This document shows positions 1 through 50,289 of a stretch of DNA of 64,000 bases, piece after piece. A model generated the notes under the pieces. The model had not been told where the DNA came from. It worked only from the letters and a program-made list of their open reading frames with translations, and ran no database searches. The position numbers and the translations under genes are program-made. Origin of the DNA: an uncultured Gammaproteobacteria bacterium (GTDB taxonomy: Bacteria > Patescibacteriota > Microgenomatia > CAYXHB01 > CAZYTL01); contig CAZYTL010000008.1 in the NCBI GenBank assembly GCA_964650355.1, forward strand, positions 89-64,088. Direction: 5' to 3'. The first letter of the stretch is position 1; the number at the start of each line of letters is the position of its first letter.

Positions 1-171
1 GGAATTCAAGCCTGAACAAACTGGAAAAGACAATCAAAGAGTAATTTCTTCAAACTTGGCCTTAGATTAAGAGATTCGCTTGGCAACTATCCTGCGTTAA
101 TCGAAGGATTTAACCCAGGCTTTTTGGATTTTTGGATTTGGACTGGAAGGAGGTAACTATTCTCTATTATT

Positions 172-199
172 CTGACTTAATCCGAACTTAAGGTATAAT
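172..199 (+). promoter_or_regulatory. sigma70-like promoter (-35 CTGACT, 16-nt spacer, -10 TATAAT); predicted TSS ~206, the first base of the left inverted repeat
   Basis: ctgact at 172-177 and a perfect tataat at 194-199. The expected TSS, 6-8 nt downstream of the -10, falls on the first base of the 12-bp repeat gagagctgtgac at 206-217. Confidence 0.35.
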
Positions 200-205
200 A
201 ACAGT

Positions 206-356
206 AGAGAGCTGTGACAATCGGTATTTGCTGTTGATTTCACGGCAACTAATTGGATTCTTGACTTTACGCCTAACATAAATAACTTTGTTAGGTATTT
301 AAGTATATAGTTTTTGATTGTTCACTTAGGAAAAGTAGCTTTTAGTCACAGCTCTC
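206..356 (+). ncRNA. putative retron-type msr/msd non-coding RNA flanked by a1/a2 inverted repeats
   Basis: Perfect 12-bp inverted repeat gagagctgtgac (206-217) / gtcacagctctc (345-356). It sits immediately upstream of a retron-type RT, as in retrons. Internal hairpins: ttgctg/cggcaa (~231-251) and a 7-bp stem cctaaca/tgttagg (272-295). An SD aagggg lies after the right repeat, 4 nt before the ATG at 371. Confidence 0.4.
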
Positions 357-370
357 CCTTAAGGGGAATC

Positions 371-1909
371 ATGGATACAATAATACAGAGAAATGATGAA
401 GAACTAGAGAATCTCTTTAGATCCTTAAGCAACAATGATGATATTGCTAACTTGCTTGAGGTAAGCAAAGGAACGTTAATTTACTATGTATACAGACTGA
501 ACAAAAGGCTACAGTACAAAACATATCAAGTTGCTAAACGCAATGGTTCTACCCGGACAATCAGTGCGCCTACGTCCAATATCAAGATATTACAACAGAA
601 ATTTAATTATATTTTTCAGTTAGTATATTCACCGAGAGAATGTGCTTTTGCCTATTCTATGGGTAGGAATGTTATACAAAACGCAAGAGTGCACAAACAG
701 TCACGTGTTCTTCTCAAAATTGACCTTAAAAATTTCTTCGAACAAATACACTTTGGAAGAGTCAGAGGATTCTTTATGTCTGAATACCCCTTTGGTTTTG
801 GAGATAAAGTCGCAACAACACTCGCCAACATTTGCACTTTTGAAGGAAAATTACCCCAGGGAGCACCGACCTCTCCCATCATTTCCAATATGATTTGTTG
901 GGGTTTAGATAGAGATCTCCAGCGTCTGTGTAGAAAACTAAAATGCAAGTACACAAGATATGCTGATGACATAATTATCTCAACAAAGCAGAACGAACTG
1001 CCCCTTGATATCGCAATTAATAATAATGGTGTATGCACAATTGGAGAAAAACTTACTTTCTACTTTGAAAAGCACGATTTTGCGTTAAATTTTGATAAGG
1101 TAAAGATGATCAGATCTAATAAAAGACAGTTAGTAACAGGTTTAGTAACAAACGAAATCGTGAATGTCCCCAGAAAATACATCCATGAATTAAGACTTCA
1201 AATGCGAATATGGGAAAAATACGGTTATAAAGAACTGAGTCAATGTGTCCCAAATCGTACTCATAAAAACCCTAAAAAGCGCATAAAGAACTATAAATGG
1301 ACAATCCAGGGAAGATTGAACTATTTGAAACAAGTGAAAGTTGAGAGTGTTTTAGAAGGGCGGCATTATGATATCTATTTAAAGTTGCAACGTTGGTTTG
1401 ACTATCTAATATTGCGCGACAAATTTAATAGTTTAAAAAGTAGTTCTGCTTATCAAGCTAGAGGCTATGCATTAGAGGATATCTTAAACAAATTATTCGT
1501 CATTAATGGCATTAAAGCAAAAAATCCATTTCGTAGGAGGAAAGGTGCAGATCAAATCGATGGTGCGTTTGTATTAGAAAAAAACAAACACTTTTTAATT
1601 GAGTGTAAATGGATAAAAGATACCGACAAAATTAATAAAGAAATTGATGCTTTTGCCAAAAAACTAGATAGATCCGGAGATGAAATTAGTGGTTTATTCA
1701 TCTCGATAGCAGGGTGGAACGAAAATGCTGTACATAATCTTAAAGAAAGCAAAACTAAAAATATTTTACTGTTAGATGGTAAAGATCTAGAAATAGTACT
1801 AACAAATAGAAAAGTAAGCTTAGATGATTTATTTGCCTGGATGCTAGAAAACTTATCTTTTAAAGCTGAACCTCATATACCAGTTAAAGAATTTTTAAAA
1901 ACCTTTTGA
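371..1909 (+). CDS. retron-type reverse transcriptase fused to a C-terminal Mrr-like PD-(D/E)xK nuclease-fold domain
   Basis: RT motifs read from the translation: Y..AKRNGSTRTISAP, NARVH...LLKIDLKNFFEQI (the NAxxH region), LPQGAPTSPIISN, YTRYADDIIIS (YADD at nt 959-970), and the retron-typical KRQLVTGLVTNE (VTG). The C-terminal ~150 aa carries RGYALEDIL...GADQIDGAFVLEKNKHFLIECKW, a D...(D/E)xK pattern typical of Mrr/restriction-endonuclease-like folds. The longest ORF begins at TTG 314, but that start overlaps the right inverted repeat. ATG 371 has an AAGGGG SD. Confidence 0.8.
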   Translation: MDTIIQRNDEELENLFRSLSNNDDIANLLEVSKGTLIYYVYRLNKRLQYKTYQVAKRNGSTRTISAPTSNIKILQQKFNYIFQLVYSPRECAFAYSMGRNVIQNARVHKQSRVLLKIDLKNFFEQIHFGRVRGFFMSEYPFGFGDKVATTLANICTFEGKLPQGAPTSPIISNMICWGLDRDLQRLCRKLKCKYTRYADDIIISTKQNELPLDIAINNNGVCTIGEKLTFYFEKHDFALNFDKVKMIRSNKRQLVTGLVTNEIVNVPRKYIHELRLQMRIWEKYGYKELSQCVPNRTHKNPKKRIKNYKWTIQGRLNYLKQVKVESVLEGRHYDIYLKLQRWFDYLILRDKFNSLKSSSAYQARGYALEDILNKLFVINGIKAKNPFRRRKGADQIDGAFVLEKNKHFLIECKWIKDTDKINKEIDAFAKKLDRSGDEISGLFISIAGWNENAVHNLKESKTKNILLLDGKDLEIVLTNRKVSLDDLFAWMLENLSFKAEPHIPVKEFLKTF

Positions 1910-2013
1910 AGAATGTTTGATTGTGAAGGAGGATAATTCAAGTGTGAGTGTCAAGATTAGTATGTGAAGGGCAAGATTTTTCACCATTGAGGTTTTTAAG
2001 GTAACCCGACAGT

Positions 2014-2275
2014 ATGAGATTGAATGTAATATTTATTCGTTATGTTTATTTAGGTAAACAGCATGGAAGCTATAAAATCGGTGAATCGAAAAACCCAAGT
2101 CGACGTAGAGAAGATAACACTTTTAGGGCCAGAGCCTTTTAAGTTAATCCATGAGATTAAAACAGATGTTATGAATGGAGTTGAGAAGTACTGGCATGAG
2201 AGGTTTAAATCAAAACACAAAAGAGGTGAATGGTTTAATTTATCTAGCACCGACGTTAAGAGTTTTAAGAGGTAG
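2014..2275 (+). pseudogene. T5orf172 / GIY-YIG-like domain gene interrupted by a +1 frameshift near nt 2104
   Basis: Frame 1 (2014-2142) reads MRLNVIFIRYVYLGKQHGSYKIGESKNPSRR..., which matches the YVY...YKIG(x)T...RR N-terminal motif. Frame 2 (2063-2275) reads ...VEKITLLGPEPFKLIHEIKTDVMNGVEKYWHERFKSKHKRGEWFNLS, which matches the ...E..H..F...R..GEWF C-terminal signature. Skipping one nucleotide at ~2104 joins them into an ~87-aa intact domain. Confidence 0.6.
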
Positions 2276-2347
2276 AAACAACCGTTTGGTAGCTGGGTCT
2301 GCCAATTTAAATAGCTTTTTTATCAGACTGAAGGTATTATTACTAAT

Positions 2348-3154
2348 ATGGGCCGAAGGAGTAGTAAGGCAAAAAAAGTTCTCTTTGTTGGGGCAATGGA
2401 AACAGAACTCCGTCCCTTATTGAAAAGTTTGAAGGCAACAGAAAGCAAGAAACTTATTAACATTTACCCTCTTTATAAAGCACGACACCAAACGGCGGAT
2501 ATATTTGTAGTGGAAACATTTGTAGGAGAAGCTAATGCATCAATCGCGGGTTTTGAAGCGATAAGAGAAGTAAATCCTGATTATGTAATCAAATTTGGAG
2601 CAGTTGGGGGAAGTTATCCTGAAAGCAAAGCCAGGGAGATTATCATTCCACTTGGTTTTTTCCATAGAACAGGATGGATTACTAAAGATCAAAAAACTCA
2701 TATACCAACGGCAGATGCTTCTAAATGGGACTCCATTTACGGTGAAAAAGATTACCAAATTCAAGAAAGTAGACACAATTTAGGCGGCATGTCATATTAT
2801 TTTTCAGTTCCCGAACGTTTACAAAGATTTTGTGAGAATACTCTTCGTAAACATAAGATGAAATACGTTACCGCTTATGTGGGGGGCGGTGATATGTGGA
2901 TGACCAATCAACAGGTGTTAAATAATGTTGCGGCAACGATGCTGCCCGCTTCAGCTACACACAGGCGATTTGTATCTGATATGGAGTCATACTCACTTGC
3001 TCATGCCTGTTACCTGACAAAGAAGCCATTTATCGGATGCTATGTGGTAGCAAGTAACGACTACATTAACGAGCTCTACAACCCGGAACTGGTACCGGCT
3101 CAAATGGAGCGGTTGGTGCCATACGCTCTTGAACTCATAAAGACTTTCGGTTAA
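2348..3154 (+). CDS. PNP_UDP_1 family nucleosidase/phosphorylase (MTA/SAH-nucleosidase-like)
   Basis: Motifs VLFVGAMETEL (the GAMEEE-type N-terminus), GEANASIAGFEAIREVNPDYVIKFGAVGGS, YVGGGDMWMTNQ and SDMESYSLAHAC align with Pfs/MtnN active-site segments. It has a ~60-aa insertion relative to the canonical 230-aa enzyme. Confidence 0.7.
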   Translation: MGRRSSKAKKVLFVGAMETELRPLLKSLKATESKKLINIYPLYKARHQTADIFVVETFVGEANASIAGFEAIREVNPDYVIKFGAVGGSYPESKAREIIIPLGFFHRTGWITKDQKTHIPTADASKWDSIYGEKDYQIQESRHNLGGMSYYFSVPERLQRFCENTLRKHKMKYVTAYVGGGDMWMTNQQVLNNVAATMLPASATHRRFVSDMESYSLAHACYLTKKPFIGCYVVASNDYINELYNPELVPAQMERLVPYALELIKTFG

Positions 3155-19345: not shown

Positions 19346-22300
19346 CTACATTCTACCTTGCCTTGCTTTCTTCAGCCATTCGCCGGTATAAGACCCTTTG
19401 AATTTGGCTAACTCTTCCGGGACCCCGGTGAAAACTACTTCTCCACCCTTTTCGCCTCCTTCCGGACCTAAATCTATTACCCAATCCGCGGACCGGATAA
19501 CGTCCAAGTGGTGCTCTATCACGATCACGGTGTTGCCTTTGTCAACTAAGGCCCGCAGGACCATGAGCAGTTTTTCCAGGTCGGCAAAATGCAAGCCAGT
19601 GGTAGGCTCGTCTAAAATGTACACGGTTTTGCCTGTAGATCGCTTGGATAGTTCAGTGGCCAATTTGACGCGTTGAGCTTCTCCTCCGGACAGGGTGGGG
19701 GCTGACTGGCCTAATTCGATGTAGCCCAAACCCACCTGACGGATGGTGTCCAGTTTTAACCTGATGGGAGGAATGTTGTGAAAAAATTCCCAGGCTTCAT
19801 CCACGGTCATTTTTAATACTTGGGCAATGTTTTTGCCCTTAAATTCCACCTCCAAAGTTTCATCGTTGTAACGCCGGCCTTGGCAGACTTCACAGGTAAC
19901 ATACAGGTCGGAAAGAAACTGCATTTCTATCTTGGTTTGTCCCCCGCCTTCGCAGACTTCGCAGCGCCCGCCTTTGACGTTGAAAGAGAAGCGTCCGGGT
20001 TTATAACCCCGGATGCGGGCTTCTGCGGTTTGGGCAAATAATTCTCTGATAGGGGTAAACACGCTGGTATAGGTAGCCGGATTGCTTCTGGGAGTGCGAC
20101 CAATCGGCGACTGGTCCACCAGAATTACCTTGTCGATCCGCAGATAGCCGGCCAGATCCTCAAATTTTCCGGGTTTTTCTTTGTGGCCGGGATGAAGTTT
20201 CTCTGCCAAGGCATGATAGAGAGTTTCCACGATCAAAGTTGATTTGCCTGACCCACTGACTCCGGTGACCACGATAAACTTACCGAGAGGAAAATCAACA
20301 TTGATGTGTTTCAAATTGAATTCGCTGGCGCCATTAAGCGACAGGTGGTGCGGAGAGGAGTCGGAGTCAGAATTTTGGTGATGATGATTAGAGGCCGGTT
20401 GATGAGCAGCTAACTCATGCTGGTCAGCCGAAGGGGAGGAATTTGTTCTTCCGTTTATTTGGATTTTTTTCTTTCCGGCCAAATATTTGCCGGTGAGTGA
20501 ATGAGGTGCGGTCTTGATCTGCTCTACTGTGCCTTCGGCCACGACTGCGCCACCGTGTTTACCTGCTCCGGGTCCAAAATCAATCACCCAATCTGCTGCT
20601 TCAATGGTGGTTTGGTCATGTTCGACCACAATCACGGTGTTACCCAGATCACGCAAATAATCCAGGCTGTCGATGAGTCTTTGATTGTCTCTGGCATGCA
20701 AGCCAATCGAAGGTTCGTCAAGGACATACAAAACTCCGGACAAGCCGGAACCGATTTGAGAGGCCAGGCGGATGCGCTGGGCTTCACCTCCGGCTAAAGT
20801 AGTAGCGGTGCGGTCCAGGGTCAGATAATCCAGACCCACGGAAACCAAGAATCTGAGCCGGGCTTTGACTTCGCGCAGAATAGGGGTGGCAATGGTTAGT
20901 TCGCGTTCCGACAGGAGAGAATTTCCTTCCTGTTCGGGAAAGTTATTTTTATCTGACTTTTCCAGCGGTTTATCATCCGCAGAGTTTTTGGAAACAGTTG
21001 ACTTTTCGTCTGGGGATAAACTTTCCGCCCAGGCCAGGGTCTTATCAATGGGCCAACTGGTCACCTGAGCAATATTTTGACCTTTGATGGTCACAGACAA
21101 AGATTCGGGCTTCAATCTGGTGCCCTGACATTCACTGCAGACTTCTTTGCGCATGTATTTTTCAATTTCTCCCCGCACCCACTCGGATTCTGTTTCCTGA
21201 TAGCGGCGTTGCAATTCAGGAATGATGCCAATGAATTTTTCGTGGATGGCAGTTAATTTACCTTGCTTGTTCTCGCCGGAAACCGCATATACCCGATTGC
21301 CGGTGCCATAGAGAAGTTTCTGCAAATGATCAGCAGGCAAATCTTTGATGGCTGTCCGCAGGTTAATCTGGTTTTCTTGAGCCATGGTGGACACCAGCCT
21401 GGACCACCAGGTGTCATGCTCAAACATGTTCATGAAAGGCAAAATTCCGCCTTCGGTGACCGACAAGTTGGGCTTGAGAATTAAATGCTCGTCAATTTTC
21501 AGCACCATACCCAAGCCGGTACAGCCCGGACAGGCGCCGTGAGGCGAGTTAAAGGAAAAACTCCGGGGTTCTATAGGAGGCAGGGAGATGTTGTCAACCG
21601 GGCAGGCAAATTGTTCGGAAAAAAGATGGTCCTTAACCTGCTGAGGCTTTTCAGGGATTTCAAATCCGGGGTCTAGAATTTCACCCAGAATCAACTGGCC
21701 GTCAGCCACCCGCAGAGCCTGCTCGACGTCGTTGTTAATCCGCGATTTCAGATTGGCCCAGGCAACTTCATCTTTGAGTTGTGACTTTTCCCAACTCAGA
21801 CGATCCACCACCACGTCTATCTGATGTTTGTTAGTTTTGATTAAGGCAATATCCTCATCCAGTTTAATCATCCTGCCGTCAACCCTGACTCTGATAAATC
21901 CTTGTTTGCGCAAATTTTCAAATAAAGTCACAAACGTGCCCTTACGATCTCTGACCACCGGCCCCAGGATCAATAACCGCACCACGGGTTGTTTCTCCAG
22001 TCGCTCTTTAATTAATTGAAGAGCTTGGTTGGTGATTTGCTGGGCAGATTGAGAGGCAATTTCCTGACCGCAAATGGGACAGTGAGGATGGCCGACCCGG
22101 GCAAAGAGCAAGCGGAGATAATCATAAATTTCCGTAACCGTGCCTACTGTAGATCGGGGATTGTGACTGGTGGATTTTTGATCAATGGAAATGGCCGGGG
22201 ACAGACCGTCAATCTGATCCACGTCCGGCTTGTTCATTACGCCCAAAAACTGGCGGGCGTAGCTGGAAAGCGATTCCACATAGCGCCGTTGGCCTTCGGC

Positions 22301-22450
22301 GTAAATGGTGTCAAAAGCCAGAGAAGATTTGCCGCTCCCGGACAAGCCGGTGAACACTACCAGCTTGTTTTTGGGAATATCTACATTGATGTCTTTGAGG
22401 TTATGTTCTCGGGCTCCACGCACCCGAATAAAATCCGAAGTGTTTTGCAT
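19346..22450 (-). CDS. uvrA: excinuclease ABC subunit A
   Basis: IRVRGAREHNLK, two GLSGSGKS Walker A motifs, and LSGGEAQR signatures. The start is likely the second ATG (MQNTSDFIRVRG); the longest ORF runs to 22462. Confidence 0.95.
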   Translation of the reverse strand: MQNTSDFIRVRGAREHNLKDINVDIPKNKLVVFTGLSGSGKSSLAFDTIYAEGQRRYVESLSSYARQFLGVMNKPDVDQIDGLSPAISIDQKSTSHNPRSTVGTVTEIYDYLRLLFARVGHPHCPICGQEIASQSAQQITNQALQLIKERLEKQPVVRLLILGPVVRDRKGTFVTLFENLRKQGFIRVRVDGRMIKLDEDIALIKTNKHQIDVVVDRLSWEKSQLKDEVAWANLKSRINNDVEQALRVADGQLILGEILDPGFEIPEKPQQVKDHLFSEQFACPVDNISLPPIEPRSFSFNSPHGACPGCTGLGMVLKIDEHLILKPNLSVTEGGILPFMNMFEHDTWWSRLVSTMAQENQINLRTAIKDLPADHLQKLLYGTGNRVYAVSGENKQGKLTAIHEKFIGIIPELQRRYQETESEWVRGEIEKYMRKEVCSECQGTRLKPESLSVTIKGQNIAQVTSWPIDKTLAWAESLSPDEKSTVSKNSADDKPLEKSDKNNFPEQEGNSLLSERELTIATPILREVKARLRFLVSVGLDYLTLDRTATTLAGGEAQRIRLASQIGSGLSGVLYVLDEPSIGLHARDNQRLIDSLDYLRDLGNTVIVVEHDQTTIEAADWVIDFGPGAGKHGGAVVAEGTVEQIKTAPHSLTGKYLAGKKKIQINGRTNSSPSADQHELAAHQPASNHHHQNSDSDSSPHHLSLNGASEFNLKHINVDFPLGKFIVVTGVSGSGKSTLIVETLYHALAEKLHPGHKEKPGKFEDLAGYLRIDKVILVDQSPIGRTPRSNPATYTSVFTPIRELFAQTAEARIRGYKPGRFSFNVKGGRCEVCEGGGQTKIEMQFLSDLYVTCEVCQGRRYNDETLEVEFKGKNIAQVLKMTVDEAWEFFHNIPPIRLKLDTIRQVGLGYIELGQSAPTLSGGEAQRVKLATELSKRSTGKTVYILDEPTTGLHFADLEKLLMVLRALVDKGNTVIVIEHHLDVIRSADWVIDLGPEGGEKGGEVVFTGVPEELAKFKGSYTGEWLKKARQGRM

Positions 22451-22612
22451 ACAACTTGTCATTATATATGAATGTCAATCAAAATTCACGAGCGGGTTTG
22501 CGGATAAAAAATGAAGACAAGTGGTTAGCATTCATGAGTCCACCAGGCACAAAATTACCAGATAATGCAAGATTCATGAGCAGGAGATGCGATGTCGGTT
22601 GTCGAGTTTCTA

Positions 22613-30629: not shown

Positions 30630-30657
30630 GCACCCATTGAAAAACGGGTGCTTTTTT
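30630..30657 (+). terminator. intrinsic-terminator-like hairpin (gcaccc-N10-gggtgc + TTTTTT), probable thrS leader attenuator
   Basis: 6-bp GC-rich stem at 30630-30635 / 30646-30651 followed by tttttt at 30652-30657. It lies 19 nt before the thrS ATG at 30676 and inside the longest-ORF extension. Confidence 0.45.
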
Positions 30658-30675
30658 ATTTGGTATGATGAATAT

Positions 30676-32439
30676 ATGGATAATAAAAACTTAGATAATT
30701 TACGGCATTCAGCCTCTCACCTGTTGGCAGCAGCGGTATTGGAATTGTGGCCGGATGCCAAGCCTACATTGGGACCCCCGATTGAGGACGGGTTTTATTA
30801 TGATTTTGATTTCGGAGAGGCTAAAATTTCTTCTGATGATTTGCCCAAAATTGAGGGAAAGATGCACGAGCTGGTGAACTCATGGAAAGGCTTTGAGCGC
30901 GTAGAAGTTTCTAAGACTGAAGCCAAGAAACAATTTAGCCAAAATGAATATAAGCAAGAATTGATTAATGACTTTTCAGAGAAAGGAGAGAAACTAACTC
31001 TATACAAATCGGGCGATTTTACTGATCTCTGCCGGGGCGGGCACATAGAAAATCCTGCGAAAGAGTTGAAACACTTCAAATTGTTATCAGTGGCCGGAGC
31101 TTACTGGCGGGGTGATGAAAAGAACAAGATGCTGACTCGGATTTACGGGACGATATTCCCAACTAAGAAAGAATTGGACGAGCACTTGGCCCGACTGGAA
31201 GAAGCCAAGCAAAGAGATCATCGAAAATTGGGAAAAGAGCTGGACTTGTTTACCTTTTCAGATCTGGTAGGATCTGGATTGCCTCTTTATACCCCCAAGG
31301 GAGCTCTGATTAGAAGATTGTTAAATGAGTATGTCGAACAAGTGCAATCTAAACAGGATTATCAACAGGTCTGGACACCTCAAATTGCTAAAGCAGAGCT
31401 ATTCAAAACTTCCGGTCATTATTCTAAATATAAAGACGATATGTTTAAGGTCATTTCCAATTATTCTGAAGAAGAATTGTATTTGAAACCCATGAATTGT
31501 CCGCAGCACACACAAATTTATGCCAGCCGGATGCGAAGCTATCGGGATTTACCAATCAGAATGACCGATTTTGCCATGCTTTATCGTGATGAGAAGCCAG
31601 GAGAACTAAGCGGTTTGGCCAGGGTCAGATCATTTTCTCAAGATGACTGTCATATTTTTTGTAGAGAAGACCAGGTTGATGAAGAAATTGATAAGGCATT
31701 AACCATGATCAAGGAAATCATGGGCACCTTTGGTTTCAAATATCGTTATCGACTCTCAACCAGGGATCAGGAACATCCGGAAAAATATTTAGGAGATCCG
31801 AAAATTTGGGACAAGGTTGAAAAATGGGCGGAAGTGATCATGAAAAGAAATAAAATTGATTATTATGACGGACCGGGAGAAGCGGCTTTTTATGCCCCGA
31901 AAATGGATTTAATGGCCACGGATGCTCTAAAAAGAGAATGGCAATTATCCACAGTACAAATCGATTACGTGATGCCGGAAAGGTTTGGACTTAAGTATAT
32001 TGATTCCACCGGATCAGATAAACATCCGATCATGATCCACAGGGCAATCGTGGGTTCACCGGAGCGTTTTATTATGATTCTTTTGGAACACTTTGCCGGA
32101 GCGTTTCCCACCTGGCTGTCCCCTATTCAGGCGAAAGTCTTACCCATCACAGATCAACAATTGGATTATGCGCAAAGGGTGGCGCAATTGTTGCGGGATA
32201 ATCGTGCAAGGGTGGAATTAGACGACCGATCGGAAACTCTGTCAGCGAAAATTCGTGACGCGCAATTGGAAAAGATACCTTATATGGTGATTGTCGGCCA
32301 GCGGGAGGAAAAAGCCAACCAGGTGGCGGTAAGAACCAGAAACGAGCAGGATTTAGGAGCTATGGAGATAGAAAAACTGACAAAACAGCTAACCGAAGAA
32401 ATTGCGACTAAATCGCTGAAATTGATGACTGCTCCTTAA
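30676..32439 (+). CDS. thrS: threonyl-tRNA synthetase (short form lacking the N-terminal TGS domain)
   Basis: LRHSASHLLAAAV (editing-domain His pair), HRDHRKLGKELDLF, class II motifs. Confidence 0.9.
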   Translation: MDNKNLDNLRHSASHLLAAAVLELWPDAKPTLGPPIEDGFYYDFDFGEAKISSDDLPKIEGKMHELVNSWKGFERVEVSKTEAKKQFSQNEYKQELINDFSEKGEKLTLYKSGDFTDLCRGGHIENPAKELKHFKLLSVAGAYWRGDEKNKMLTRIYGTIFPTKKELDEHLARLEEAKQRDHRKLGKELDLFTFSDLVGSGLPLYTPKGALIRRLLNEYVEQVQSKQDYQQVWTPQIAKAELFKTSGHYSKYKDDMFKVISNYSEEELYLKPMNCPQHTQIYASRMRSYRDLPIRMTDFAMLYRDEKPGELSGLARVRSFSQDDCHIFCREDQVDEEIDKALTMIKEIMGTFGFKYRYRLSTRDQEHPEKYLGDPKIWDKVEKWAEVIMKRNKIDYYDGPGEAAFYAPKMDLMATDALKREWQLSTVQIDYVMPERFGLKYIDSTGSDKHPIMIHRAIVGSPERFIMILLEHFAGAFPTWLSPIQAKVLPITDQQLDYAQRVAQLLRDNRARVELDDRSETLSAKIRDAQLEKIPYMVIVGQREEKANQVAVRTRNEQDLGAMEIEKLTKQLTEEIATKSLKLMTAP

Positions 32440-35747: not shown

Positions 35748-37640
35748 TTAGAAAGGTAAATCATCTCCAGAAATAGTCGGCTGGTAATTATCAAGAGAGT
35801 AGATGGGACTGCTACCATTAAGGTTGTTGATTAATTCTTCGGGTATATCAGTAATGAATCGGCTGATGGCGTAAGAAGTGCTGCGGCCAAAGTAAAGCCG
35901 GTGATAAGCGTAGGTGAGGTAAAGTTGTTCCATGGCCCTGGTCATGCCTACGTAGCAAAGCCGGCGTTCTTCTTCCATTTGGGTATGATCCAGCTGGCTG
36001 CGGGAATGGGGAAACAGACCTTCTTCCATGCCGATCATAAACACGGTGTTAAATTCCAGGCCTTTGGCCGCATGCACGGTCATGAGGGTAACTTTGTCAG
36101 TGCGCCCGGTTTCCAGTTCTTTGGTGGTTTCCTGCTCTACTAGAGCCACGTTTTCCAAAAACTGGGTTAGGTCAGGGAATCTGTCTGCCACGGACCGCAA
36201 TTCTTTAATGTTCTCTAACCGGGCAAAGTCATCCTGATCTTCGGGATCAAATCTCTCCAGATAACCGGTGGCATCCAGCACCCGGTCCATCAGCTCCTGA
36301 GTAGATGAGGAAGAAGAAGGATTTTCGTTTAACTTTTCTCTCCACCGGACAAAGGTTTCCCATCGGTGTTTGCCCAGCTTTTTGATTCTCTCCTCGGACA
36401 CGGTATCTTTGGGATTGGCGATCAGCCGCAGGTAGCTAATGATGTCTTTGATTTCTCTGCGTTGATAAAATCGGGTGCCTCCTACTAGGAGATAGGGGAT
36501 GCCACCGTGCAATAGGGCCTCTTCCATGACCCGTGATTGAGCGTTCGTCCGATACAAAACCGCAAAATCGCCATAAGTCTTATGTTGAGTTAGTAATTTT
36601 TCTTGAATAGAATTGACCACGAACCTGGCCTCGTCCAACTCATTCCGGGCTGGATAGACAGCGATTTTTTTTCCTGCTGGTTTGTCCGTCCACAACCGGA
36701 GCACCGGATGCAAAGTATTCTTTTGAATCACCTGGTTGGCGCCGGAAAGAATGTTTTGGGTGGAGCGGTAATTTTGCTCCAAATTAATGGTCACTAAATC
36801 GGGAAAGTCTTGTTTCAAATGCTGCAGATTACGGAAATCAGCACCGCGCCATGAATAGATGGACTGGGAAAAATCACCCACGGCCATGAGGTTTTTATGT
36901 TTACCTGCCAACAGTTTGGTTAACACGTATTGGGCTTTGTTAGTATCCTGGTATTCGTCGACCAGCACGTATTTAAGTTGTTGTTGGAAGTTGTTAAGAA
37001 CTGTAGGATGGTTTTGGAATAAATCAACGGTATAGCTTAACAGATCATCGAAGTCCACGGCTGCTGCCTGGCGAAGAAGTTTTTGGTAGGCCTGATAAAG
37101 TTCGGCAATGGTTTCTTGATATGAGGACCGGGCATAGTTAAAATAGTCAGCAGGTTTAATTAGTTCGTTTTTGGCTTCGGAAATGGCAGCCAGTGCTGAT
37201 TTCGGCCGAAATTTTTTGGCATCGACTTTTAATTTATCTAACGCTACTTTAATCAGAGTTTCCTGATCGTCAGCGTCATAAATCACATAATCGTTTTCCA
37301 AACTGATCAGCTGGCCATATTTGCGTAGGATGCGGGCGCAGAAGCTGTGGAAAGTGCCTCCGAAGACACTGGGTCTGGAAGCCGCCGGCCCTGAAGCGGA
37401 AAGAGATGACTGTCCGATTAGTTGTCTGACCCGTCCGAGCATTTCCTCAGCAGCTTTATTGGTAAAAGTAAGGAGGATGAGTTCGTGAGGATGGGCGAGT
37501 TGCTGTTCGATCAGCCAGGCCGCTCTGTAGGTCAGAGTCCGGGTTTTGCCTGATCCGGCACCGGCCAAGACCAGCACCGGTCCGTCTGTGTGGGTGACCG
37601 CTTGCTTTTGTTGATCGTTAAGTTGAGCTAAAATATCCAT
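35748..37640 (-). CDS. ATP-dependent DNA helicase, UvrD/PcrA/Rep family
   Basis: AGAGSGKTRTL (motif I), VDEYQDTN (motif II), and the remaining SF1 motifs. Confidence 0.9.
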   Translation of the reverse strand: MDILAQLNDQQKQAVTHTDGPVLVLAGAGSGKTRTLTYRAAWLIEQQLAHPHELILLTFTNKAAEEMLGRVRQLIGQSSLSASGPAASRPSVFGGTFHSFCARILRKYGQLISLENDYVIYDADDQETLIKVALDKLKVDAKKFRPKSALAAISEAKNELIKPADYFNYARSSYQETIAELYQAYQKLLRQAAAVDFDDLLSYTVDLFQNHPTVLNNFQQQLKYVLVDEYQDTNKAQYVLTKLLAGKHKNLMAVGDFSQSIYSWRGADFRNLQHLKQDFPDLVTINLEQNYRSTQNILSGANQVIQKNTLHPVLRLWTDKPAGKKIAVYPARNELDEARFVVNSIQEKLLTQHKTYGDFAVLYRTNAQSRVMEEALLHGGIPYLLVGGTRFYQRREIKDIISYLRLIANPKDTVSEERIKKLGKHRWETFVRWREKLNENPSSSSSTQELMDRVLDATGYLERFDPEDQDDFARLENIKELRSVADRFPDLTQFLENVALVEQETTKELETGRTDKVTLMTVHAAKGLEFNTVFMIGMEEGLFPHSRSQLDHTQMEEERRLCYVGMTRAMEQLYLTYAYHRLYFGRSTSYAISRFITDIPEELINNLNGSSPIYSLDNYQPTISGDDLPF

Positions 37641-47836: not shown

Positions 47837-48499
47837 ATGAAAGCTAAGGGGATAACTCTGGAAAAGAACCAAACTGGTATCATTTGGGACACGGGCAACA
47901 CGATTCAACTTCTGGGAGAAAATTCTCAAGAAATGGTCGATCTTAGAGAGATACACGTACCCAAGGATGCTACACTTGATTATTATTTTATTTGGAACGG
48001 CTCTTCAATTAATCGAAGATTAACTATTCACTTAAATAAAGAAGGGGCAAGCGCTCGGGTGCTGGGGATATTTATCGCTGAGGATAAAAACAAAATCAAT
48101 TTTGACTCAACTATCATCCACCATGCCCCTAATACTTATGGGAATACTTTGGTAAAGGGGGCGTTAACAGATGCCAGTAAATCCAGTTTGAACGGGATGA
48201 TTAAGATTGATAAAGGAGCAGACGGATCAGATGATTTGTTAACAGAAAGAGTGCTGCTGTTGTCCCCCAAGGCTCGGGCCGAAGCTAAGCCAATGTTGGA
48301 AATTGATGCCAATGAAGTAAAGGCTACTCATGCTGCCACTGTCTCGAAGATTAATGAAGAGCAACTTTATTATTTACGCACCAGGGGAATTACCAAACAG
48401 GTGGCCAGCGATCTGATGGTGCAGGGATTCTTGCAGGAGGTGATTGGCCAATTCCCAGAACAGCTTAAAAAGAGTCTTCCCCAAAAGGTGAGTTTTTAA
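47837..48499 (+). CDS. sufD: SufD-like Fe-S assembly protein (short, SufBD C-terminal domain)
   Basis: ...EVKATHAATVSKINEEQLYYLRTRGI parallels the SufB C-terminus. Confidence 0.7.
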   Translation: MKAKGITLEKNQTGIIWDTGNTIQLLGENSQEMVDLREIHVPKDATLDYYFIWNGSSINRRLTIHLNKEGASARVLGIFIAEDKNKINFDSTIIHHAPNTYGNTLVKGALTDASKSSLNGMIKIDKGADGSDDLLTERVLLLSPKARAEAKPMLEIDANEVKATHAATVSKINEEQLYYLRTRGITKQVASDLMVQGFLQEVIGQFPEQLKKSLPQKVSF

Positions 48500-50289
48500 A
48501 ATAGTTGCATTTGTTGTTTTTTCTTCCGGCGGGCAGCTTTTTGTTTCTGGTATTTTTGAGCAAGTTGGTCTTCCATGACATGCAATAGGGGAGAGGTTAA
48601 AGATTGCAAAAATCTTGATGATTGCGACGGCTGGATTTGATTATGGATGGCTCTTTTGCGAGTAAGAGTGAGATAGAGTTGTTGTTTAGCCCGAGTGATC
48701 CCCACATAGAGCAAACGGCGTTCTTCTTCCAGTTGCTGCTCATCATCTAGGCTCTTGTGATAAGGAAGCAGACCTTCTTCCAGACCAATGATAAATACCA
48801 CTCCGAATTCCAGACCTTTAGCCGCGTGCATGGTAGACAAGGTAACTTTGTTGACTTCAGGCTGATATTCATCCGGGGTCTGCAGCATTTTTAACTGTAA
48901 GAGAAAATCACTCAGGGTGTCTGAAGCCGGCTGGTTGCCGTATTGCAAGGCAATGATTTTTAATCTATCCAATCTATCTTTTTTGGCGCTAGACGATTCC
49001 AGACTGAGTTCCATGATCAGCAAGTCTATCCAAGTATGCAGAGTGGCCTGATCATCTGATTTAAGATCGGTGATCAACTGATATTCTTGAGGTCTTAATA
49101 GCCAACGGTCATCTTCTAGTTCTGGTTGATTAATCAATTCCAAAATTCTGACTATTTGTTCTATTTCTGAGTATTCCAGTAGAGTCTTTTCGCCGATAAC
49201 TTGGTAAGGAATCGTGTCTTTGGCCAGTTGTTTTTCCAAGGATTCCGACAGACTGTGGGTGCGATATAAAATCGCAATATCCCGAAAACCATAATCGTGA
49301 TCCGAGATATTAACTTCGTGATGGATGCTAAAGTCTCCGGCACCGGTGAGTTGCTGAATTTGTTTACTGATCCAATAGGCTTCTGTTAGGTGATCTGTGG
49401 TATTAAGTAATCGGGTTTCCGAAGGTAAGTCATGAACGGCCCTAAGGACGCGGCTGTCTGAAAATAACCTGTCGGACAGATCCAGGATATTTTGTGTTGA
49501 TCGATAATTGGTAGTTAAATTGACGGTTTGAGGTTTATAAAGGCTCTTTAATTGATTAAAGAACTGCGGGGAGGCTCCTCTAAAACCATAAATGGATTGA
49601 TAGGGATCTCCGACAACGAATATTTTTGCATGAGAGATTTTTAACAGGCGGATAATAATTTGAAATTGCAACTGATTTAGGTCCTGAAATTCGTCGACCA
49701 AAATGTACTGGTAATCAAGAGCGGGGGGATTTTGAAGAAAATCCAGAGTTTCTAATAACAAGTCGTCGAAGTCCACTAAGTGATGAGTTTTTAGGTAGTG
49801 CTGATACTGGTCAATGATGGTTTTGAGTTGCTGTCGGTGATCACCATCTATCGGAGAATCGTTCGTCTGCTTCAGAAGGGAAATTTTATCCAGGATATCT
49901 TTGACTTTTTCGCCCTTGGGTTTGAATTCTTTGATGATGCGCTTCTGTTCGGCTTCGGAAATGATTTCTTTGGGATGGTCCTGCCAGTCAGGGTGATGTT
50001 GTTTGAGAAACTGATAACACCACGCGTGAATAGTGCCAATGAACGGTCCCCCTTTCTCTGAAGTTTTCAAGGAGAGACTCTCGTTTAAGCGCGACTTTAA
50101 CTCTTCAGCTGCCTTTTTAGTGAAGGTCAAAGCCATGATCTGCTGAGGAGGAATTTTCTTGTCCTTGAGTAAGTATTTCAGTTTGGCGATTAAAGTGTGA
50201 GTCTTACCCGTACCCGGTCCGGCGATGACAACACAAGATTGATCGGAAGAAACTGCTTGTAATTGTTGGGGATTAAGTTGCTCTTTCAT
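48496..50289 (-). CDS. UvrD/Rep-family SF1 DNA helicase (second copy)
   Basis: IAGPGTGKTHTL (motif I), VDEFQDLN (motif II), VGDPYQSIYGFRGA (motif III). Confidence 0.85.
   Translation of the reverse strand: MKEQLNPQQLQAVSSDQSCVVIAGPGTGKTHTLIAKLKYLLKDKKIPPQQIMALTFTKKAAEELKSRLNESLSLKTSEKGGPFIGTIHAWCYQFLKQHHPDWQDHPKEIISEAEQKRIIKEFKPKGEKVKDILDKISLLKQTNDSPIDGDHRQQLKTIIDQYQHYLKTHHLVDFDDLLLETLDFLQNPPALDYQYILVDEFQDLNQLQFQIIIRLLKISHAKIFVVGDPYQSIYGFRGASPQFFNQLKSLYKPQTVNLTTNYRSTQNILDLSDRLFSDSRVLRAVHDLPSETRLLNTTDHLTEAYWISKQIQQLTGAGDFSIHHEVNISDHDYGFRDIAILYRTHSLSESLEKQLAKDTIPYQVIGEKTLLEYSEIEQIVRILELINQPELEDDRWLLRPQEYQLITDLKSDDQATLHTWIDLLIMELSLESSSAKKDRLDRLKIIALQYGNQPASDTLSDFLLQLKMLQTPDEYQPEVNKVTLSTMHAAKGLEFGVVFIIGLEEGLLPYHKSLDDEQQLEEERRLLYVGITRAKQQLYLTLTRKRAIHNQIQPSQSSRFLQSLTSPLLHVMEDQLAQKYQKQKAARRKKKQQMQLF

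Follow-up and report, generated by a model that had tools for sequence, protein, structure and literature searches.

The window analyzed here, the whole 64-kb stretch of DNA, belongs to a CPR (Microgenomates-like) bacterium and carries in its first two kilobases a promoter-like site, a structured RNA and a gene for a fused reverse transcriptase (RT) and nuclease, all on the + strand. The RT-nuclease gene occupies positions 371..1909 as a single frame of 512 aa from ATG 371, with the stop codon at 1907-1909. The peptide strings quoted in an earlier note on this DNA are present in the + strand ORF ending at 1909; the protein length of 531 aa given in the same note had to be corrected to 512 aa, since it counts from TTG 314. 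That start codon was rejected because TTG 314 lies inside the upstream non-coding RNA (ncRNA) and because homologues align from ATG 371, which is also the start of the gene called for the identical protein (P0001) on a public Logan contig (L081). The element is present in one copy in the 64-kb window, as judged by the covariance model of its RNA (R1, see below), and the GC content of the retron region is 34% versus ~44% in the remainder of the window.

The N-terminal part of the protein (371..1345, aa 1-325) is a retron-type RT domain, recognized by matches to the Pfam family RVT_1 (aa 55-250, E 4.6e-20 in the Pfam scan), to PADLOC profiles, to PDB sequences and, by Foldseek, to known structures. 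It possesses the conserved catalytic RT motif YADD (nt 959-970, aa 197-200) and two retron-specific motifs, NAxxH (here NARVH, aa 104-108) and VTG (aa 255-257); the residues Y197, D199, D200, T256, G257, N104 and H108 are invariant in the homologue alignment. The PADLOC retron RT profiles matched with E-values from 1e-114 to 4e-93, in each case with the alignment confined to the RT part. The top profiles were RT-TIR_XII, RT-Protease_XI and RT-Toprim_I-C, with those of types XI and XII scoring highest (E 1.5e-114 and 9e-110). Of the 15 PDB matches found by phmmer, the first 14 are retron RTs, with Retron Ec67 as the best sequence match (3.6e-54), and the last is a group II intron RT, and the cryo-EM structures of Eco2 are the best Foldseek match of the full-length model (2e-28). 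It is thus an RT of the retron lineage, nearest to Eco2/Ec67. The PADLOC RT profiles leave 186 residues uncovered after about aa 326, so that the C-terminal extension beyond the RT described in the earlier note is real.

In the full-length AlphaFold2 monomer model (pLDDT 89.8, pTM 0.79) a long linker helix (1361..1438, aa 331-356) connects the RT thumb to the C-terminal domain; the confidence of the model dips at aa 290-310 and 320-330, suggesting possible hinges. The C-terminal ~150 aa (1451..1906, aa 361-512) are a PD-(D/E)xK restriction-endonuclease-like domain with putative nuclease activity, which falls within Pfam Mrr_cat and is of the same type as the FokI/BspD6I cleavage domains. Its fusion in cis to a retron RT, as the earlier note had proposed, is supported by four independent lines of evidence, including the Pfam match, the alignment of the family profile with a PDB entry and the conservation of residues. 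With the C-terminal 160 aa excised, Mrr_cat (PF04471) scored 29.3 bits (E 1e-6), above its cut-off of 21; the Pfam scan of the full-length protein left Mrr_cat unreported and gave Mrr_cat_2 only, below its own cut-off. Roughly one homologue in four has a precomputed PF04471 match. The family profile matches the CARF nuclease Cdn1 in the PDB (2.6e-5), and the D and ECK motifs of the two line up. In a separate model of the domain (pLDDT 93.6) the alpha-beta-beta-beta-alpha-beta core is present, that is, a restriction-endonuclease fold and not the non-nuclease fold that the earlier note had considered as the opposite outcome. The closest structural matches are FokI/BspD6I-type cleavage domains, not Mrr, at 14-16% sequence identity. 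PADLOC gave for this domain only a weak match to PDC-S02 (4.7e-4), and the Pfam scan detected no TIR or Trypsin domain in the protein.

Conservation of the putative catalytic residues was assessed in 120 homologues with 36-66% identity, which represent the best-scoring 90%-identity clusters among the matches listed. The motif D394-Q-I-D397 (1550..1561) contains D397, the 'PD' aspartate, at the start of strand beta-2 in the model, and at the end of beta-3 stands the (D/E)xK motif, E411-C-K413 (1601..1609). Both D397 and E411 are found in 120 of 120 homologues, as expected if the D-Q-I-D ... E-C-K motif recognized in the earlier note is catalytic. Almost as conserved are Q395 (118/120), C412 (116/120) and position 394, which is E in 110 homologues and D in 9 (119/120 together). 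The family signature can be written as R-x(4-5)-[ED]-Q-I-D-G ... E-C-[KR]-W ... S-G ... G-W. Position 413, a lysine in the protein of the window, is divided among the 120 homologues between K (62) and R (58). To our knowledge, arginine in place of lysine in the ExK motif is unusual among active PD-(D/E)xK enzymes, and the R-bearing half of the family may or may not be active. The Mrr_cat layout suggested originally needs two minor corrections: the nearest structures are of the FokI/BspD6I type, and the lysine is replaced by arginine in half of the family.

Upstream of the gene, a promoter-like site (172..199) is composed of CTGACT, a 16-nt spacer and TATAAT, with 10/12 matches to the consensus. 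Its -10 box ends 7 nt 5' of the first inverted repeat of the ncRNA, and a TATAAT box is equally distant from this repeat at four other loci (L082, L083, L086 and L088); the site probably serves as the promoter of the retron transcript. The msr-msd ncRNA (~155 nt) lies at 202..360 and scores 121.9 bits with R1. Its closing stem has as 5' arm the inverted repeat a1 (GAGAGCTGTGAC, 207..218), with an exact 12-nt reverse complement in the repeat a2 (GTCACAGCTCTC, 345..356), the 3' arm, ending 14 nt before the ATG. Between them are the msr hairpin (228..248; TTGCTGT, loop TGATTTC, ACGGCAA), which corresponds to consensus helix 2, and the presumed msd region (264..344), where a conserved basal stem (ACTTTACGC ... 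GGAAAAGT) encloses variable inner hairpins such as the one at 272-295. By the general architecture of retrons, the msDNA would extend over this msd region. G214 in a1 is invariant in the 12-locus alignment, which makes it a candidate for the branching G.

The fold of this RNA is supported by covariation. The geometry of a1/a2 is constant in 11 loci with differing sequences, and both sides of the stem are changed in 8 of its 10 pairs with pairing kept. Helix 2 consists of 7 pairs, 5 of them with compensatory changes, and is 95% paired; consensus helices 3 and 4 are likewise conserved with covariation, and the msd interior varies in both sequence and length. For the 12-locus alignment as a whole RNAalifold gave 24 pairs, 16 with compensatory changes, and 93.4% of the cells are paired versus 35-44% in slid controls. 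The z-score of the minimum free energy of the ncRNA is -4.3. No Rfam family was found for the ncRNA, either by E-value in a scan of positions 1-3000 or by gathering score across the whole window, and therefore a covariance model of its own, R1, was built. The Rfam matches in the window are four tRNAs, located away from the ncRNA. At loci outside the training set, R1 matches directly upstream of the RT with 80-83 bits in L089, L090 and L093 and with 57 bits in L161; a further match, at the RT-nuclease locus L110, is weak (27.9 bits). R1 also matches upstream of RT-Trypsin_2 genes in L006 and L008, and no R1 RNA was detected at 63 nuclease loci without an RT. Judged by its sequence and predicted pairing, the segment 202-360 is a retron ncRNA with a1/a2 architecture, which would provide template and primer for msDNA synthesis.

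The fusion is widespread. All of the best 120 homologues among the matches listed contain both halves at 86-100% query coverage, and most are 500-545 aa long, with three shorter proteins of 444, 475 and 493 aa. Well over 100 sequence clusters keep the RT and the nuclease in a single ORF, and they come from several phyla, including non-CPR lineages such as Chloroflexota, Thermodesulfobacteriota, Zixibacteria and Syntrophorhabdales. An RT is present at 17 of 80 metagenome loci that hold the nuclease module, and at 15 of these 17 it forms a single reading frame with the nuclease; in L092 and L100 the same-frame ORF covers no more of the RT than its C-terminal part. As to the question of fused versus split genes raised in the earlier note, no split pair of RT and nuclease genes was found among these 80 loci; where the RT is not fused in frame, the flanks contain none. 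The neighborhoods of six homologues revealed no conserved partner genes; recombinase, integrase and terminase genes occur near RT-nuclease genes at other loci. A scan of a genome collection with the full-length alignment returned, among the matches listed, mostly other clade-8 RTs, with the RT-nuclease at two loci (L001, L002), and so illustrates the swapping of effectors rather than giving a census. The phage collection yielded matches to the RT part only and no full-length RT-nuclease.

Each half of the protein is also found in other combinations. Among the N-terminal domains that the nuclease module is joined to are SIR2_2 and others unrelated to RTs, and hundreds of further proteins combine it with SIR2 or with an uncharacterized domain of ~145 aa; in the non-RT relatives of ~315 aa the N-terminal domain has no convincing match in PADLOC or Pfam. 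Conversely, Trypsin_2 or the Schlafen domain AlbA_2 replaces the nuclease in relatives with the same RNA family. The nuclease module is shuffled across N-terminal domains, and the chassis of RT and ncRNA carries varied effector domains.

By sequence and by structure, Eco2 (Ec67, type I-C, RT-Toprim) is the closest solved relative. It is likewise a single protein with an N-terminal RT and a C-terminal nuclease and with the ncRNA immediately upstream, but its effector fold is Toprim, which is unrelated to the PD-(D/E)xK fold found here. Assignment to type I-C was rejected: the C-terminal domain is PD-(D/E)xK and not a Toprim with EGxxD and DxD motifs, the RT-Toprim_I-C and retron_Ec67_fus profiles align to aa 16-326 only, and NCBIfam gives a score of 300 where 450 would be required. 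The same overall plan, a clade-8-like RT followed by a C-terminal effector, characterizes types XI (RT-trypsin-like protease) and XII (RT-TIR) of RT clade 8 (Mestre et al. 2020). The protein was placed in neither of them. For type XII, the TIR domain is missing, the profile match ends at position 317 of 478, and Retron_TIR_antiphage (NCBIfam) scores 316.6 against a cut-off of 600; for type XI, the trypsin-like peptidase is missing and the match ends at 380 of 510, and the relatives L006 and L008 do carry Trypsin_2. The fused domains listed for clade 8 are three, Toprim, TIR and peptidase, with no restriction-endonuclease-like domain among them (PMC7736814). Outside the retrons, the nuclease resembles FokI, N.BspD6I, R.BspD6I and Mrr_cat, where the partner is a DNA-recognition domain and not, as here, an RT, and the Can2, Card1 and Cdn1 CARF nucleases of type III CRISPR systems, of which Cdn1 shares the aligned ECK motif.

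We consider it likely that positions 172-1909 constitute a complete single-protein retron, consisting of promoter, ncRNA and RT-nuclease, in which the msDNA-RT part restrains the nuclease until phage infection. In Eco2, the trimer is caged by msDNA, and degradation of the msDNA by the phage nuclease DenB frees the fused Toprim (PMC12916289, PMC12405507). By analogy, the RT would make msDNA from the ncRNA, and the resulting msDNA-RT nucleoprotein would keep the fused nuclease inactive. A change of the msDNA inflicted by the phage (degradation or modification), or a change of the assembly, could then free or dimerize the nuclease, which would cut nucleic acid non-specifically and abort the infection. 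Such gating by msDNA would agree with the Eco2 experiments, although the Toprim effector of Eco2 has an unrelated fold. The Eco2 Toprim cuts tRNA/RNA, whereas the FokI-like domain modeled here points to DNA; DNA would be the most likely substrate because of this FokI-like fold, though the fold alone does not tell DNA from RNA, and Can2/Card1-type relatives also cut RNA.

Several other roles for the fused domain can be imagined. Maturation of msDNA in classical retrons requires host nucleases, and a CPR host has a small gene repertoire, so the nuclease could serve retron biogenesis by processing ncRNA or msDNA, for instance through trimming of the template RNA or of the ends of the msDNA, in place of a host RNase H or exonucleases that CPR bacteria may lack. 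We regard this as unlikely, as the fusion is spread over many non-CPR phyla, the module occurs on SIR2_2 and other non-RT domains with no msDNA to process, and sister retrons hold effectors at the same position, namely protease, TIR, Toprim and Schlafen (PMC7736814). The domain might alternatively be an inactive PD-(D/E)xK derivative that serves only for oligomerization or for the binding of nucleic acid, be it msDNA or a phage cue, with the toxicity residing elsewhere. The invariance of D397 and E411 and the near-invariance of E/D394 and Q395 make such a loss of activity quite improbable; the replacement of K by R keeps the positive charge, the protein of the window has the canonical D...ExK, the locus encodes no other candidate effector, and its neighbors are not conserved.

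FokI is a non-specific cleavage module, and other systems couple modules of this kind to a separate specificity module. With a FokI-type nuclease and an RT in the same polypeptide, connected through a long helix, and with an msd interior that varies strongly between loci, it could be speculated that msDNA bound to the RT pairs with invader nucleic acid and directs the cleavage, as in DNA-guided Argonaute; if true, the msDNA guide would make the protein a naturally occurring self-programming RT-nuclease. This msDNA-guided reading, put forward in the earlier note, gained no support and appears to us very unlikely. No characterized retron is known to use msDNA as a guide. The msDNA of Eco2 acts as a cage (PMC12916289). 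Little of the msd would be single-stranded, because its interior folds into hairpins, and N-terminal domains other than an RT are partners of this nuclease module as well. A search of 50,697 phage records also gave no match to the ncRNA, which is a weak test because few phages of CPR bacteria have been sampled. The order of the domains finally recalls R2/RLE-type elements, in which an RT is followed by a C-terminal PD-(D/E)xK endonuclease, and which would imply a mobile retroelement inserted by R2-like target-primed reverse transcription with RT and restriction-like endonuclease. We give this next to no credence: unlike R2-type non-LTR retrotransposon proteins, the protein belongs to the retron RT family by its PDB matches and its NAxxH and VTG motifs, its upstream RNA has the a1/a2 msr-msd fold of retrons, and direct reading of the linker (aa 326-361) revealed no Cys/His (zinc) knuckle. 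There is no sign of mobility at this locus, with its single copy in the 64-kb window, and the nuclease module is common to non-RT defense-like proteins. The resemblance to R2 is most likely convergent.

Under the preferred reading, a retron in which msDNA and RT restrain the nuclease, the locus adds to the single-protein ('minimal') retrons an effector class that is not listed among them, a FokI-like nuclease of the PD-(D/E)xK superfamily. Fusions among the published retron types are limited to Toprim, TIR, protease and DUF3800, and we found no description of an RT fused to a PD-(D/E)xK domain in the retron literature. It is not listed in the Millman 2020 preprint, in the 2025 PLoS Biology retron paper or in the 2026 Eco2 paper, nor in Mestre 2020, the supplementary tables of which may hold an unnamed entry. 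This combination of RT and nuclease is absent from the published 13-type classification, yet environmental genomes commonly contain it. To date a mechanism is known for no RT-effector fusion other than Eco2, and the generality of caging by msDNA could be judged from a second one whose nuclease fold is unrelated. The family is also a clear case of effector shuffling, with the nuclease module on SIR2 and on the ~145-aa domain and the chassis with protease and Schlafen-like domains. A compact protein combining the synthesis of single-stranded DNA in vivo with a putative DNA nuclease could be of interest for retron-based genome editing. In the databases these proteins are named 'reverse transcriptase' only, and by retron-typing HMMs their closest types would be XII and XI, which is a practical gap in the annotation of defense systems.

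The RT-nuclease of the window is encoded by one long open reading frame on the + strand, from the ATG at 371 to the stop codon at 1907-1909 (512 aa), and contains all peptides quoted in the earlier note. The protein length of 531 aa given there was not confirmed: it corresponds to a TTG start at 314 from a mechanical ORF list, which was rejected because all homologues align from the Met of ATG 371. The identical protein P0001 on the public Logan contig L081 is also called from this ATG, and the TTG falls in a stretch belonging to an upstream structured RNA; therefore, the 512-aa numbering was adopted. Pfam placed RVT_1 at aa 55-250 (4.6e-20). In the full-length scan Mrr_cat_2 was the only nuclease-type match, under its threshold, and the last 160 aa scanned alone matched Mrr_cat (PF04471) with an E-value of 1e-6 and 29.3 bits (gathering score 21).

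Using a homologue search over 5.8 billion proteins, we found both the RT and the nuclease half in all of the best 120 matches listed (36-66% identity, query coverage 86-100%). These proteins are mostly 500-545 aa long, with three shorter ones (444, 475 and 493 aa); about a quarter have a precomputed PF04471 match, and their database names say only 'reverse transcriptase (domain-containing/family) protein'. No homologue deviates at D397 or E411 (120/120); Q395 is shared by 118, C412 by 116 and W414 by 119, and 119 have E or D at position 394; the RT motif YADD (aa 197-200) and the retron motif VTG (aa 255-257) are likewise conserved. Position 413 is K in 62 homologues, as in the window protein, and R in 58. 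Arg in place of the catalytic Lys, found in about half of the family, is a caveat, as it is unusual among active enzymes of the PD-(D/E)xK superfamily.

AlphaFold2, given 30 homologues, modelled aa 340-512 (pLDDT 93.6) with the element order alpha-alpha-beta-beta-beta-alpha-beta-alpha-beta. The motif residues occupy their canonical positions: strand beta-2 begins with D397, and beta-3 ends with E411 and K413. Against the PDB, the domain profile matched the CARF nuclease Cdn1 (2.6e-5) and a Can2, whose catalytic D and ExK line up with the QID and ECK motifs. The predicted nuclease fold and the conserved catalytic residues, together with the Mrr_cat match and the Cdn1/Can2 alignment, bear out the proposal that the C-terminal extension is a PD-(D/E)xK domain.

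The RT part is of retron type. Its top PADLOC profiles are RT-TIR_XII (1.5e-114), RT-Protease_XI (9e-110) and RT-Toprim_I-C (4e-93), with alignments confined to the RT part, and the NCBIfam models for the TIR fusion and the Ec67 fusion scored under their cut-offs. The closest solved protein by sequence is retron Ec67/Eco2 (3.6e-54), and Foldseek ranked the cryo-EM structures of Eco2 first for the full-length model (pLDDT 89.8, pTM 0.79). In this model, RT and nuclease are connected by a long helix (aa 331-356), flanked on both sides by low-confidence hinges.

Upstream of the ATG, a 12-nt inverted repeat is formed by a1 (GAGAGCTGTGAC, 207-218, +) and a2 (345-356, +). Ten further RT-nuclease loci have a repeat of this geometry (arm spacing 125-140 nt, 8-47 nt from the end of a2 to the start codon); the arm sequences vary from locus to locus. 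A predicted promoter, CTGACT-16-TATAAT (172-199, +), ends 7 nt before a1, and four relatives have a TATAAT box at the same distance. The consensus structure from a 12-locus alignment comprises the a1/a2 stem, a conserved msr hairpin (228-248), the msd stem base and a variable interior. Compensatory changes were found in 16 of its 24 pairs, and 93.4% of cells are paired, versus 78.5% in shuffles and 35-44% with partners slid by 1-3 columns. The window RNA alone folds at -46.2 kcal/mol (z-score -4.3). The derived covariance model scores 121.9 bits on the window (202-360) and matches directly upstream of RT-nuclease genes outside its training set: L089, L090 and L093 (80-83 bits), L161 (57 bits), L110 (27.9 bits, weak) and L146, whose RNA is cut by the contig end. 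It has no match in 63 loci with the nuclease module and no RT, and Rfam holds no family for the window ncRNA. The window element is a retron in every testable respect.

A nuclease-module profile search over 1.84 billion representative proteins retrieved 3,364 clusters at E <=1e-3 and 2,062 at E <=1e-10. RT fusions make up ~16 of the best 150 clusters; most others are proteins of ~300-320 aa whose N-terminal ~145 aa form an uncharacterised domain. Among 80 metagenome loci holding the module, one has it fused to a SIR2_2 domain that also matches ThsA and LmuA profiles (L112:2987-4480), and one carries integrase repeats. An RT is present in 17, and the survey of fused versus split genes suggested earlier turned up no split pair: 15 of the 17 have RT and nuclease in a single frame, the same-frame ORF of the other two (L092, L100) has just the C-terminal part of the RT, and the flanks of the remaining loci contain no RT. 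Conversely, RT relatives with the common ncRNA family bear other C-termini: Trypsin_2 (L006, L008), Schlafen AlbA_2 (L011), unidentified domains, or none. Therefore, both halves behave as exchangeable modules, as expected of a defence effector.

Several relatives deserve separate description. The module (37-43% identity) is most often C-terminal in ~310-330-aa proteins of loci L094-L168 (e.g. L127:408-1352, L144:3539-4483). Neither Pfam nor PADLOC matched the conserved ~145-aa domain at the N-terminus of these proteins (MEIGVEERRLAIEIIATLVHIK...), which may represent an undescribed single-gene defence candidate. L011:5321-6901 encodes a clade-8-like retron RT fused to Schlafen AlbA_2, is preceded by a member of this ncRNA family (49.9 bits), and is a further RT-effector fusion outside the 13 published types. 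The ncRNA model also gave modest matches just upstream of RT-Trypsin_2 (type XI-like) genes, at L006:5270-5439 (32.8 bits) and L008:5788-5963 (29.6 bits); type XI was described as having no recognisable ncRNA module (Mestre et al. 2020, PMC7736814).

The classification into 13 types lists three fused domains in RT clade 8 (Toprim, TIR and trypsin-like peptidase) and DUF3800 in type VII-A1, and anticipates rare additional types in metagenomes (Mestre et al. 2020, PMC7736814). The literature searched, including the main text of that study, yielded no account of a retron RT that carries a restriction-endonuclease-like domain. Unlike types I-C, XI and XII, the window protein does not have their defining effector feature. 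The modular nature of retrons and their nuclease effectors (HNH, Toprim, HEPN) are familiar, so the fusion would come as no great surprise to a specialist. Even so, the RT-nuclease proteins form a large family with no assigned type, reveal a nuclease module that is widely shuffled and, with the window retron, provide a second single-protein retron whose mechanism can be compared.

In Eco2, a trimer scaffolded by msDNA keeps the fused Toprim nuclease caged; once DenB, a phage nuclease, has degraded the msDNA, the active sites are unblocked, and RNA cleavage then stops translation (PMC12916289, PMC12405507). Other fusion retrons were suggested to use msDNA binding similarly (PMC12916289). From Eco2, the closest characterised system, we infer gating by msDNA in the window retron: by analogy, the msDNA-RT assembly would hold the FokI-like domain inactive until a phage cue frees it or allows it to pair. 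FokI-type domains dimerise to cut double-stranded DNA, and the freed nuclease would degrade DNA and abort the infection.

Other roles appear less likely. A nuclease domain serving msDNA processing is improbable, and an inactive binding domain about equally so. The msDNA-guided nuclease offered as an option in the earlier note gained no support and is very unlikely: the msd is mostly hairpin, the ncRNA had no match in phage records (a weak test), and we know of no retron that uses a guide. Least probable is an R2-like mobile element.

The genes adjoining six homologues vary by locus (a serine recombinase, a phage integrase, a terminase-like gene with an HTH gene), thus the unit is the ncRNA and one gene. 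The retron region has 34% GC versus ~44% elsewhere in the window, the rest of which is ordinary chromosome encoding UvrA (19349-22462, a housekeeping gene), MurE, MurA, ThrS and PcrA-like helicases. Since ThrS (30631-32436) shares ~72% identity with its counterparts in Woesebacteria, Microgenomates and Pacebacteria, the host is a CPR (Patescibacteria) bacterium, and a retron in so reduced a genome is noteworthy.

Directly downstream of the retron lies a T5orf172/MUG113 (GIY-YIG-like) gene (2014-2275, +) with an apparent frameshift near 2105-2115: one frame (ORF 2014-2142) encodes the N-terminal YKIGESKNPSRRRE, and the next (ORF 2063-2275) the remainder. When the frames are joined, the product matches MUG113 over its full length (positions 1-69 of 73, 44.5 bits) and also matches T5orf172, and the called 70-aa ORF alone covers only MUG113 positions 21-69 (33.4 bits); either the gene is a pseudogene or the frameshift is a sequencing error. 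The low-GC patch (window 1-2000 versus the rest) holding the retron and this remnant is bounded on one side by the end of a gene at ~70, visible on L081, and on the other by a PNP_UDP_1 gene at 2348, and is consistent with a small horizontally acquired islet. Elsewhere in the window, two PcrA/UvrD-family helicase paralogues lie <=13 kb apart (35751-37640 and 48499-50289, both on the - strand).
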